A DNA stretch of 32,000 nucleotides, from positions 4,530,001-4,562,000 of the forward strand of contig NZ_CP147990.1 in assembly GCF_037902255.1 (NCBI RefSeq). The letters run 5' to 3'. Source of the stretch: Candidatus Electrothrix sp. GW3-4 (GTDB lineage: Bacteria; Desulfobacterota; Desulfobulbia; Desulfobulbales; Desulfobulbaceae). This document shows positions 15,001-18,000 of this stretch, in pieces; the first letter of the stretch is position 1, and each line of letters starts with the position of its first letter. The position numbers are program-made.

Positions 15001-18000
15001 CAAGAACGTTGTCAGAGGGAAATTGTTATTTCTTCATATGGTTAGAGGTGATAGGGATAAAATATATATTAATTTAGCAAAACGTTTTAACAAGCTGATA
15101 CCAGCACAAGAACGGCCCCTTCCTTACGTAGAGGCAACTGACGAGGAGAAAGATATTTTCAATACTCTATGGGTTCTAGAAACTTTATATGATGACGAAC
15201 ATGGAGAGATCATTGCCAATCATGGTACCGGATTCATGTTGAAAGATGTTGGTTTGGTTACTTGTGCTCATGTTGTCGCTAAAAGAGAAGATATACACAA
15301 AATAACTGAAGCATTTAGGCATGACCGACCACATGAAAAATACACAATAAAAGTAACTAAGTTTTCTGTTGAGCGAGATTTAGCTATTGTGGAGCTATGT
15401 TCCCAAACAAATAAAGAGAAAGTTAATATTTCGGAATGTCTTTTGCCCTCTCCAAATAATGTTAAACAGAAAGATTCTATTTCATTGTATGGATTTCCAG
15501 CATATAAAACTGGACAAACACCATATGTTGCAGACGGCAAGGTAGCTTCTAAATTTGCCACGCATGGAATTCAAAAATTTGAGATAACGACTCCGATTAG
15601 GGAGGGTAATAGTGGTGGTCCTGTTTTAAATATGAAAAATGAAGTTATAGGGATAGCAGCTGAAGGTGCCCGAAAAGAATCAGGTAATAATGCAGTGATA
15701 TCAATTGGCGAGTTAAGCAAAGTTCCTGAAGTAAAAAAATAACAAACCTGAATTTGTCGTTAGGGATGTAGGGTATTATGGAGTTCCAAGTCGGTGACAA
15801 AGTTGTCTGGATGAAACGGATACCCGGCGGTGATTATGTGTATCCCGTAGCGGGTAAGGTTTTGGGATTCACAGAAAAACGGGTAAAGATTGAAGCCGAT
15901 GATGACGGCGATATTGGCATACGATATGTCCAACGTGAAAATCTCCAAAAGTTAGACTGACCGGCTGATTGCTCCCTTGTCGGCACGAATTTGCCGTTTA
16001 CATCACTCCAAAGTCAATCGGAATTGATACGATGTTAATTTGAATCATCCCAATTCCAGTTGGAAGCAACACGGTTCCAATGTGAATTACCCCATTTTAA
16101 ACTGGAATCAAGGCGATTCCAATCGGAAATGGCCCAATGTCAATTGGAATCAGGGCAATTCCTGTTAACATTGAAGCGATTACAACAGGAATCAAACCAA
16201 TTCCAATTGGAATTACGATGATTCCGGTGTGCATCGGGTTGATTCCAGCGTGATTTACACCGAAACAGCTGGATATTTGTTAGAAAAATATGTAGTAGAA
16301 GTTTAAGGATGGCCCGTTTGGATGAAACAAAAGCGGGCTGAGGTTGTGCATATCCAAACGGTTGAAGATCAGCTTGAATTTAAAGCAATGAAAAGCCGGA
16401 TCAAGGAGCTGGAATCGGTATTGGCGCAAAGCGTTCTTGAAAACCGGATGTTGGAAACCACGATAGAAGTAGCCGATCAATCATTGGGCATTGATATTAA
16501 AAAAAATTTCGGGAGGAAATTATAACCCAGGCAGCCGAAAACCAACTCATCGTGGAACTGGTCAGGGCCATCCGCCAGCATCACCCACGTATGGGCGGGC
16601 GAAAACTGCATTACGAGCTACAGGATTCGGTGGCCGCCTTGGGTATTTCCAAGGGCAGAGACGCGTTTTTCAAGCTGTTATCAGCACATAACCTACTGGT
16701 TCCAACCAGACTCAGCCGTCGCAGAACCACACATGCAGGCTTGTGGCGATGTTCCAATCTGTTGATTGATTTAACCATTACCCACGTCCATCAGGCCTGG
16801 GTTGGTGACATCACCTATATCACGACCGAGGCAGGATTTGTTTATCTGGCTTTACTGACCGATGTTTTTTCTCGCTTTATTGTCGGCTTCGATCTCTCGT
16901 CGTCGTTTGCGGTTGAAGGGTGTGACCGGGCGTTGAAACAGGCGATAGCCCAGGCCAACGGTGCTGATTTGCGTGGGCTGATCCATCATTCCGACCATGG
17001 GGTGCAATACACCGCCTGGCTGTACCGGGAGCGATTGCAAAAGATGGAGATACGTTCCAGCATGGGAGAAGTGGGCAACTGTTATGAGAACGCCATGGCT
17101 GAGCGAGTGAATGGGATTTTAAAAGGAGAATACGGCCTTGATGACCTTTTCGTTGATAAGGAACATGCTCAGAAAGCTGTGCGGGAAGCTGTTTGGCTAT
17201 ACAATTATGAACGACCTCATTTGGCACTCAACTATGGCAAGCCTGCAGAGATTTATTTTGAGAAAATTGATGTAAAGTAGTTACTATTTTGGTGTCAACA
17301 TATTTCAGGACTTGACAGTTCCCAAGCTCCGGTTTGGGAATTGTTTTTTCCTGAAGCTCTGCTTCTCAGTTTGCTGTCTAGGCGCCAGTACAAAAACGTC
17401 CCGTCCATCTGTAATATCCTTTCCCTCTCCTCTCAGTAATCCGACTTTACACGATTTTTTTCTTTACTTTTTTGTAACAGAAGAGTATGCATTCCTGATG
17501 TGCTGAGAAATTTTGCAAAGGATTGATTACCCTTAGCGGAGGAAAGGGCCATGTCGGAGAATAAGATTCCAGAGAGTGGGACGCAGGAAGGAGAAAGCAA
17601 GCAAGAGAAAAATCCTATGGCCGCTCCGGCCATTGGTCTGCCCAAAGGTGGCGGGGCTATCAAGGGCATGGGTGAGAAATTCGCTGCCAATCCGGTTACT
17701 GGCACTGGTTCGATGTCCGTGCCCCTTGCTCTCAGTCCGGGACGGGCCGGTTTCGGCCCTCAGCTCTCCCTCTCTTATGATTCCGGTTCCGGCAACGGCC
17801 CTTTCGGTTTTGGCTGGAGCCTCTCTCTCCCCGCCATCACCCGTAAGACCGACAAGGGCCTGCCGCAGTACAACGATGCTACCGAATCTGACGTGTTCAT
17901 TCTTTCCGGGGCGGAAGATTTAGTCCCTGTCCTCAATTCGAACGGCGAACCTTGGAGCGAAACGCACCCTGTTGGCGACATCAGCTATCTTGTCCGCCGC

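Follow-up and report, generated by a model that had tools for sequence, protein, structure and literature searches.

The 32,000-nucleotide stretch analyzed here (the window; Candidatus Electrothrix sp. GW3-4, contig NZ_CP147990.1, positions 4,530,001 to 4,562,000 of the forward strand) carries an array of 12 head-to-tail 21-nt units at positions 16007 to 16258. The host is a cable bacterium of the Desulfobulbaceae with a genome of 4.64 Mb and a G+C content of 49.5%. Comparison of copies shows that the array is one copy of a dispersed, noncoding element of cable bacteria, about 270 nt long, which consists of a 5′ boundary box, 8 to 17 recognizable 21-nt units on an ATTCC-N4-GGAAT core, and a GC-rich 3′ hairpin. 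Its most likely role, to which we assign a probability of roughly 45%, would be that of a phased docking track, acting at the DNA level, for a putative dimeric DNA-binding protein.

Structure and dispersal of the element

The phase of the array is exact, with zero slips over the 12 units, and the TTCC and the GGAA tetramers (seven of seven in each case) each keep to a single residue modulo 21. Self-identity at lag 21 is 0.52, compared with 0.26 ± 0.03 in 5000 shuffles (z = 9.4), and positions 16007 to 16258 are the sole region of the window with such periodicity. The preliminary description, made from the sequence of the window, was therefore right about the number, length, and phase of the units. 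At lag 42 the self-identity is higher still (0.61), and Tandem Repeats Finder (TRF) lists the core of the array as a 42-nt repeat; the stronger signal at lag 42 than at lag 21 indicates a super-period in which two unlike 21-mers together make up the true unit. The consensus on the plus strand is approximately cccrATTCCAATTGGAATcar, and a position weight matrix (PWM) chain scan of the genome recovers the array. It had also been claimed that every unit is an ATTCC-N4-GGAAT palindrome, which does not hold. Both half-sites are perfect in unit 10 only, where direct reading gives the sole perfect 16-bp palindrome (16199 to 16214; AATTCCAATTGGAATT), as had been noted, with eight of eight Watson-Crick pairs. 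Units 3, 6, and 9 match 9 of the 10 half-site bases, and the other eight match at most 8 of 10, with one perfect half-site in five of these. Counted as Watson-Crick pairs, 11 of the 12 units form 3 to 5 of 8.

The conserved ends of the element extend outside the coordinates originally given for the array. On the 5′ side, a small hairpin (CGGCA-CGAATT-TGCCG) is followed by the boundary box TTTACATCAC (15981 to 16006, plus strand); the box of the window copy, TTTGCCGTTTACATCAC, occupies 15990 to 16006, and homology between copies starts at GCCGTTTrCATCAC. On the 3′ side, a second hairpin (TCCAGC-N18-GCTGGA; 16244 to 16273, plus strand) has its 5′ arm inside the last unit, and homology between copies stops just beyond it. 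At the corresponding place, B-type copies have TCCGGCG-N7-CGCCGGA, and copy C has TCCGGCA-N7-TGCCGGA.

A search of the genome and of databases, which the preliminary description had proposed, yielded seven paralogues, copies in relatives, and arrays in metagenomes, with no ParB- or Rep-type neighbors. By the PWM chain scan, the genome holds eight arrays of the ATTCC/GGAAT type: F43 at 43 kb, A1 at 538.4 kb, A2 at 538.9 kb, B at 545 kb, C at 941 kb, D at 1063 kb, E at 3863 kb, and W, the window copy. All eight are intergenic. Beyond this genome, the genus has matches in 6 of its 13 other species, and 1 of 11 other Desulfobulbaceae genera sampled has them too, as do several assemblies of Candidatus Electronema; a pattern scan with one genome per species matched many contigs of Candidatus Electronema and a Desulfobulbaceae metagenome-assembled genome (MAG).

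The copies are homologous as whole elements and not merely by motif. They share the start box GCCGTTTrCATCAC and an ordered series of individual units, which begins with AAAGTCAAyCGGAAT, GATGTCAATTTGAATCA, and CCATTTyAAAC..GAATCAA and runs to ..GTGTGCATCA, with GATTCCGGCG of the last unit pairing with a downstream CGCCGGA. Seven copies, from seven loci in different species, are about 90% identical between sharp ends and have the same unit order, with unrelated flanks. Where copies differ in length, it is by gain or loss of whole units. The units come in two flavors, the W type (GATTCCAATTGGAATC) and an A/T-shifted F type (GATTTAAAyTTCAATC). Some copies carry additional modules, namely, a leader that is conserved and about 110 nt long and a tail of roughly 100 nt: copy C and loci L010 and L014 have both, and copies F43 and A1 and a further locus (L015) have the leader without the tail. 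The terminal parts of the window copy are limited to the short 5′ box and the 3′ hairpin.

Conservation of the array and the level at which it is read

At one locus, that of an MscS-like gene, both the array and its downstream gene are orthologous between the genome of the window (G000) and that of a relative (G009). The two arrays differ at 13 of 270 positions (95% identity), whereas the adjacent MscS-like gene differs at 46 of 217 four-fold sites (79% identity; P = 4 × 10−8 in comparison with the array). The changes that do occur avoid the palindrome core: in seven aligned copies, 27 of 59 columns are variable at unit positions 1 to 4 and 13 (the spacer), compared with 26 of 183 in the core (P = 2 × 10−6). 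This slower-than-neutral change is evidence of what appears to be purifying selection on the DNA sequence itself. Phase is kept more strictly than sequence, with 410 of 411 PWM hits in phase across 38 cable bacterial arrays in which the units of an array are only about 60 to 70% alike.

This strictness of phase is the strongest of the arguments on mechanism. A third of the bases have changed between units, but almost never through an insertion or deletion (indel), and the number of units changes by whole units, which favors a structure read on the DNA double helix at two turns per unit. A hairpin RNA or a neutral satellite would have no reason to forbid indels of 1 to 2 nt, and a coding repeat would tolerate steps of 3 nt. 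On this argument, the element would be read as double-stranded DNA. Each unit would represent a dyad of the 5-N4-5 type that dimeric DNA-binding proteins read, and the 21-bp spacing, equal to two helical turns, would place all sites on one face of the helix, allowing many copies of a candidate protein to polymerize along approximately 250 bp. Such a track would probably control or insulate a downstream promoter, mark the border of a variable slot, or do both. The preliminary description had likewise proposed cooperative binding by a dimeric protein; phased, two-fold symmetric DNA sites are indeed the best-supported interpretation, given the phase, the conservation of the core, and the slow evolution, while the specific candidates that it named are not supported (see below).

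The period also recurs far outside this family. Whole-genome TRF output contains 24 rows of period 21, 30 of period 42, and 11 of period 63, although the rows overlap and rows of different period can describe one array. Their motifs are unrelated (e.g., CCCCAAGGGG, AAAGAG..CTCTTT, and TTTTAAAA), so that what dozens of 21-, 42-, and 63-nt arrays in the genome have in common is period and not sequence. In metagenomes, a scan for three phased TTCC-N4-GGAA units matched at least 120 contigs. Among the matches listed, the G+C content ranges from 0.30 to 0.70, the median array length is 9 units and the longest array has 25, and 587 of 634 spacings are multiples of 21. The same 21-nt period in unrelated families and across phyla, together with the dyad, the conservation of core over spacer, and the slow evolution, favors the docking track.

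We found no conserved reading frame in six-frame translations of all copies, and stops are present in all six frames of the window array, as had been stated. A minus-strand frame (MHTGI..IPIGI..LIPV; 16097 to 16234) is nevertheless open in B-type copies, extending over nine units in seven of them, where the Met is conserved and the stop falls in the same unit, and could be taken for a small hydrophobic heptad-repeat peptide or a decayed protein repeat. We consider this hardly credible. By its very composition, the frame ATT-CCN-NNN-GGA-ATx contains few stops on either strand, so the IPIGI peptide is an artifact of the codon structure of the dyad. F-type units put ATT-TAA stops into the frame, and copy D stops early. 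Substitutions show no clear 3-nt periodicity (23, 14, and 16 variable columns per phase), there is no evident ribosome-binding site, and only four database proteins, all weak relatives, resemble the ORF (open reading frame).

A role as RNA deserves more weight but is still unlikely in our judgment. The element would then be a structured leader, a 3′ untranslated region, or a small-RNA precursor that stabilizes, terminates, or attenuates transcripts in the manner of REP/BIME sequences or is cut into pieces of about 21 nt. The array is co-oriented with flanking genes, its predicted folding is strong (z = −5.1), the leader contains a terminator-like hairpin, and pairing in the 3′ hairpin is kept by different sequences (TCCGGCG/CGCCGGA, TCCGGCA/TGCCGGA, and TCCAGC/GCTGGA). 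Transcription has been reported for BrickBuilt and for 52-nt Bacillus repeats (PMC4596501 and PMC8161180). However, the opposite strand folds equally well (z = −5.3). Among 325 distinct units, covariation is seen at pair 9:14 only, with no compensatory change at pairs 7:16, 4:19, and 3:20, and the frequent left half AAGTC disrupts the stem in more than 40 units. On the gene-sense strand, A.C mismatches outnumber G.U pairs, and RNAalifold on eight copies gives a covariation term of +0.72, i.e., no support. Rfam returned no match to the array at the gathering score or at an E value of ≤1, a tRNA/tmRNA scan of it found none, and counts from promoter and terminator scans did not exceed those of shuffles; the one good internal sigma-70-like site is confined to B-type copies. 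The exact phase, which a hairpin RNA would not need, points the same way.

Specific RNA classes fare no better. The multihairpin or protein-sponge RNA offered as an alternative in the preliminary description is not supported, since the GGA, which a Csr/Rsm-type sponge exposes in hairpin loops, lies here in the stem half GGAAT, and neither an Rfam match nor a terminator accompanies it; in keeping with what had been reported, no csrA partner is present, nor is a rep or par gene. A retron msr-msd RNA lies beside, and normally upstream of, the retron reverse transcriptase (RT), which it always accompanies. The array was rejected as such an RNA because it lies downstream of the RT and a 60-aa ORF, and a retron is a neighbor at only two of the eight genomic copies. 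Repeats of the ToxI type are found directly upstream of a toxin endoribonuclease gene, with a terminator between. A type III toxin-antitoxin system was rejected on the genes downstream of the arrays (phnA, adk, sbcD, and genes for an MscS-like protein and an ATPase), among which no family recurs.

Genomic position, origin of the window copy, and candidate partners

The nearest downstream ORF is co-oriented with the array at about 24 of 29 loci, typically at a distance of 30 to 200 nt, a count that rests on crude ORF calls and on loci that are not independent. In the genome of the window, the genes that follow the arrays are phnA, adk, sbcD, a channel gene of the MscS/BON type, and an ATPase gene of the PDC-M07A type. 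The upstream side is variable and includes retrons of types XI and XII (the latter with a GIY-YIG gene), an nSTAND NTPase, and unknown genes; at corresponding places, relatives have different cassettes, e.g., VapBC instead of the ATPase. Synteny between G000 and G009 breaks exactly at the 5′ edge of the array. The arrays are thus usually at the border of variable, defense-rich DNA. With respect to replication, judged by inspection and with the origin assumed to be near position 1, four of seven loci are co-oriented, i.e., there is no bias. The preliminary description had allowed for a common dispersed satellite with no positional association; the family is dispersed, with eight arrays, but its positional bias is clear.

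This position, upstream of genes at variable borders, suggests promoter control, insulation, or border marking. In a more specific form, which we regard as speculative and probably not correct, the arrays would be boundary elements coated by a candidate protein that binds DNA sequence specifically and forms filaments, insulating core-gene promoters from defense slots and serving as homology anchors for slot exchange. If this were true, cable bacteria, and many other phyla with other motifs, would use such tracks, and arrays that are protein-bound boundary or control elements would constitute a new type of element of bacterial chromosome architecture.

The window copy lies downstream of a type XI retron RT fused to a trypsin-like protease (14090 to 15742, plus strand; Pfam RVT_1 and Trypsin_2; PADLOC RT-Protease_XI, E = 1.5 × 10−181). 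Between this gene and the array is a 60-aa ORF (15778 to 15960, plus strand), which is conserved along with the 5′ end of the array and has no significant Pfam or PADLOC match. In G009, the same succession of RT-protease gene (92% identity), 60-aa ORF (90%), and array is found upstream of phnA, and in the genome of the window, array E at the phnA locus (3.863 Mb) is preceded by a truncated copy of the 60-aa ORF that is 92% identical. The window copy and the phnA-locus arrays have in common the first two units, the last unit, and about 25 nt downstream of it; in its interior, the window copy most resembles B-type copies (78% over 171 nt). In the comparison with the phnA-upstream regions of two relatives (L026 of G009 and L017 of G005), the last common bases, ..TTTGTTAGA, are at 16274 to 16284 (plus strand). 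Homology stops there, whereas in both relatives the sequence runs on to the phnA start codon. In the window, an IS3-family remnant follows (16322 to 17280, plus strand; Pfam rve and rve_3), with an OrfA′ at 16322 to 16525 and an integrase ORF at 16552 to 17280. It is present in a single copy in the genome, and its OrfA is only 67 aa long and lacks the N-terminal part.

These data show that the window copy is a displaced duplicate of the array upstream of phnA, which moved with the type XI retron and the 60-aa ORF, and that its downstream gene was lost to the IS3 remnant. The placement of the array between a retron and a left-truncated IS3 element, and the suspicion that its original context had been lost, were therefore both correct. 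At its own site, the window copy is probably a relic without a target, and it adds little by itself. Farther downstream, the window contains a 2624-aa ORF (17551 to 25425), whose N terminus is presumably SpvB/Tc-toxin B-type-like, followed by two ORFs of about 1000 aa.

The phnA-upstream site is also informative about how the element spreads. It holds an array in five species and none in at least six other species searched, two of which have the same left flank. A comparison of filled and empty sites shows the array plus about 100 nt in place of 62 nt, with no target duplication. Filled and empty sites, dispersed copies with sharp ends and unrelated flanks, and a patchy occurrence in the genus (6 of 13 species) would all be expected of a selfish or neutral minisatellite-bearing repeat resembling a MITE (miniature inverted-repeat transposable element), spread by a trans-acting enzyme or by recombination without any host function, with the period a by-product of copying. 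Contigs of draft assemblies often end at arrays, and the modular build of leader, units, and tail seen in some copies recalls BrickBuilt (PMC4596501). In another phylum, one array lies between direct 57-nt duplicates of the lysS 3′ end. Nevertheless, no terminal inverted repeats and no target duplication were found at aligned boundaries in cable bacteria, and no transposase partner of the arrays was found, although no search was aimed at RAYT (REP-associated tyrosine transposase) genes; the transposon-end-like array suggested earlier thus finds no support. A selfish repeat would also leave unexplained why array and adjacent gene are colinear between species while the array is far above neutral conservation and its core is spared, why orientation is strongly biased relative to the downstream gene, and why the same period occurs in unrelated motif families and phyla. 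We therefore hold a selfish origin to be improbable, though of all the alternatives it is the one to be taken most seriously.

The neighborhoods likewise bear on a plasmid, integrative and conjugative element (ICE), or phage origin, in which the array would be a relic of iterons or of a partition centromere. Tandem dyads in helical phase characterize iterons and parC/sopC centromeres, and the preliminary description had named both. Viral contig L262 (IMGVR_UViG_3300029291_000006) even has six in-frame 21-nt TTCC-TGTA-GGAA repeats (257 to 373; APLPVGN x6) inside a 244-aa initiator-like gene, next to a gene for a DnaC/IstB-like ATPase (loader), a layout like that of a lambda-O-type origin. The use of the same dyad and period in initiator-like repeats indicates that this geometry can serve protein binding, though in a different context. 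For the cable bacterial arrays, however, an iteron, ICE, or centromere (parC/sopC/parS) relic is close to refuted. No rep or par gene adjoins the array at about 40 copies examined, none of the eight chromosomal copies lies beside a helicase-loader gene, a search of 72,556 plasmid records gave no match, and the pattern turned up in only 2 of 2.9 million viral contigs. In several species, the arrays instead have conserved chromosomal positions upstream of housekeeping genes.

Proteins that might bind the arrays were sought among recurrent neighbors. Among the metagenome matches listed, a 125- to 135-aa all-helical protein ends with its stop codon 27 to 28 nt before the array at 7 of 11 loci on peat and soil contigs, and a helical+FN3 protein of about 205 aa lies 41 to 200 nt after the array at six loci, on low-GC contigs that are probably from Bacteroidota. 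The latter is homologous to an array neighbor in Saprospiraceae (E = 1 × 10−12) and has no homologue in the genome of the window, which eliminates it as a partner here. The third recurrent neighbor is the lysS 3′ end, with arrays after lysS in six metagenome contigs. In L057 (CAWDUK010000004.1), 11 to 12 ATTCC-N4-GGAAT units (6616 to 7022) directly follow lysS, with the 57-nt direct repeat of the lysS 3′ end (88% identical) at the flanks; this array lies beside a DUF433/DUF5615-like gene pair, assigned by eye, and similar lysS-type loci are L133, L192, L199, L221, L227, and L238.

Homologues of the small all-helical protein do occur in the genome of the window, as three 105-aa paralogues (1291855 to 1292172, 2251966 to 2252280, and 3501344 to 3501039; L251, L253, and L252, respectively), to which the peat and soil relatives are 30 to 36% identical. 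Within about 40 to 60 nt downstream, they have CCCCAAGGGG-type arrays of 21-, 42-, and 105-nt period and not ATTCC/GGAAT arrays, which implies that the array motif changes with the protein lineage. A second helical family, of about 115 aa, is present at 1138612 to 1138956, 2037028 to 2036690, 2418660 to 2418322, and 3265940 to 3266206; these paralogues have a 21-, 42-, or 84-nt array 50 to 300 nt upstream, of the AAAGAGG..CTCTTT or TTTTAAAA type, and for further paralogues or fragments found by tblastn (e.g., at 249913 and 2771385), TRF listed no array nearby. In a Saprospiraceae MAG (L089), an ATTCC-AACT-GGAAT array (1430 to 1652) starts 8 nt after a gene for a 199-aa cNMP-binding, Crp/Fnr-like protein (823 to 1422), and the second array of the genome precedes a helical+FN3 gene (L037). 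Nothing comparable to this Crp/Fnr-array arrangement was found in cable bacteria.

Several of these results, and some given above, weigh against the docking track. The two Crp/Fnr-type genes of the genome, 54% identical to each other, were rejected as encoding the binder, as they are not near arrays and every one of the 13 species in the genus has both, whether it has arrays or lacks them. The small helical protein was rejected as well: its homologues here precede arrays of a different motif, a search of the Electronema genomes in which ATTCC/GGAAT arrays abound did not turn up its family, and its AlphaFold model (four helices; pLDDT, 80) has no PDB match and no known DNA-binding fold. Clustering of 96 flanking ORFs from about 30 cable bacterial loci yielded no gene family that recurs beside the arrays, only orthologous groups. 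With no partner in view, the ATTCC/GGAAT arrays of cable bacteria stand as orphans. In addition, part of the high identity of arrays across species could be due to recent spread or gene conversion and not to selection, the individual sequence of each unit is kept, spacers included, which is more than a row of equivalent sites needs, and the strong orientation bias relative to genes would also suit a transcribed element.

Other features of the genome were noted in passing. A 65- to 71-aa ORF (MTDTEIRMKGMQVLVNALGEVHAEKF..) at 538.64 to 538.85 kb, between A1 and A2, is near-identical in three species and has no Pfam match. On the variable side of copy C, upstream of adk, the type XII retron (RT-TIR; 943052 to 944650; PADLOC E = 1 × 10−171) accompanies the GIY-YIG gene (942391 to 942861). 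A second dispersed element, GGTATCACAnnCCAttTTcAAACCGCGCAGTGATGGGGgTTACAG..GGGCTCTnAGGTTCGAATCC, has a tRNA-T-arm-like end, with no ARAGORN tRNA call and no Rfam match. It occurs beside array C (941.96 to 942.16 kb; L006, about 1780 to 1970), as a fragment before array B (545.11 to 545.15 kb), and at 3560844 to 3560967, 660951 to 661021, 666048 to 666131, 653504 to 653574, 3640522 to 3640606, and 4336162 to 4336246. This GGTATCACAnnCCAttTTcAAACCGCGCAGTGATGGGGgTTACAG element is found upstream of two different 21-nt array families and of a CRISPR array (repeat GTCTTAATACCCTCTTCATAGGGTAGGTGTTACGAC; about 666.38 to 666.90 kb), which is directly downstream of one of its copies.

Comparison with known repeat systems

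Among protein-bound sites, sopC of plasmid F has 12 repeats of 43 bp bound by SopB, parC of R1 and the 20-bp repeats of pSK41 are bound by ParR, and FNR-type boxes read TTGAT-N4-ATCAA. The cable bacterial arrays share with such centromeres and operators the two-fold symmetric half-sites, the 5-N4-5 dyad, and a spacing of whole helical turns that allows cooperative filaments on one face, but they lack an adjacent par, rep, or regulator gene and occur in many copies per chromosome. Lambda-type iterons are matched in dyad and period by the viral repeats of L262, inside an initiator-like gene; the cable bacterial arrays differ in being intergenic, noncoding, longer (8 to 17 units), multicopy, and unlinked to replication genes. 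REP/BIME sequences of enterobacteria and pseudomonads are units of 35 to 40 nt in hundreds of copies, with alternating orientation and no fixed helical period. The resemblance here lies in palindromic short units, intergenic clusters, chromosome-wide dispersal, and lineage specificity.

BrickBuilt is a minisatellite-containing MITE of Porphyromonas gingivalis (Klein et al. 2015, PMC4596501), present in about 10 to 20 copies per genome, always intergenic and tens to hundreds of nucleotides from neighboring genes (PMC4596501). Like BrickBuilt, the arrays consist of spacerless head-to-tail units and have multiple dispersed intergenic copies; the leader and tail modules that bracket BrickBuilt have counterparts in some copies, as listed above. 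BrickBuilt differs in its 23-nt unit, its sequence and phylum, its small inverted-repeat ends, and its measured promoter activity (PMC4596501), and neither terminal inverted repeats nor target duplications of the BrickBuilt type are seen in the cable bacterial arrays.

Repeats of fixed 20 to 21 nt are common and catalogued in bacteria. Subirana and Messeguer described noncoding bacterial tandem repeats of constant 20- to 21-nt length and variable sequence, with several families per genome, a short conserved motif per unit, and each family restricted to a lineage; they catalogued them mainly in Bacillus and other complete genomes and gave no function but proposed either a protein polymerizing on DNA or small RNAs (PMC8161180 and an earlier J Bacteriol article that it cites). 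The cable bacterial arrays share the 21-nt period, the noncoding nature, and the occurrence of several families of the same period in one genome. Those papers do not include cable bacteria, the ATTCC-N4-GGAAT dyad, conserved ends, ordered units, a position at the border of variable DNA, or slower-than-neutral evolution. The cable bacterial family appears to be undescribed, as a full-text literature search returned nothing relevant. What it offers as handles are a defined dyad, evidence of purifying selection, and a reproducible position upstream of co-oriented genes at the edge of a defense slot. In its architecture, the array fits the published class of constant 20- to 21-nt repeats and resembles BrickBuilt.

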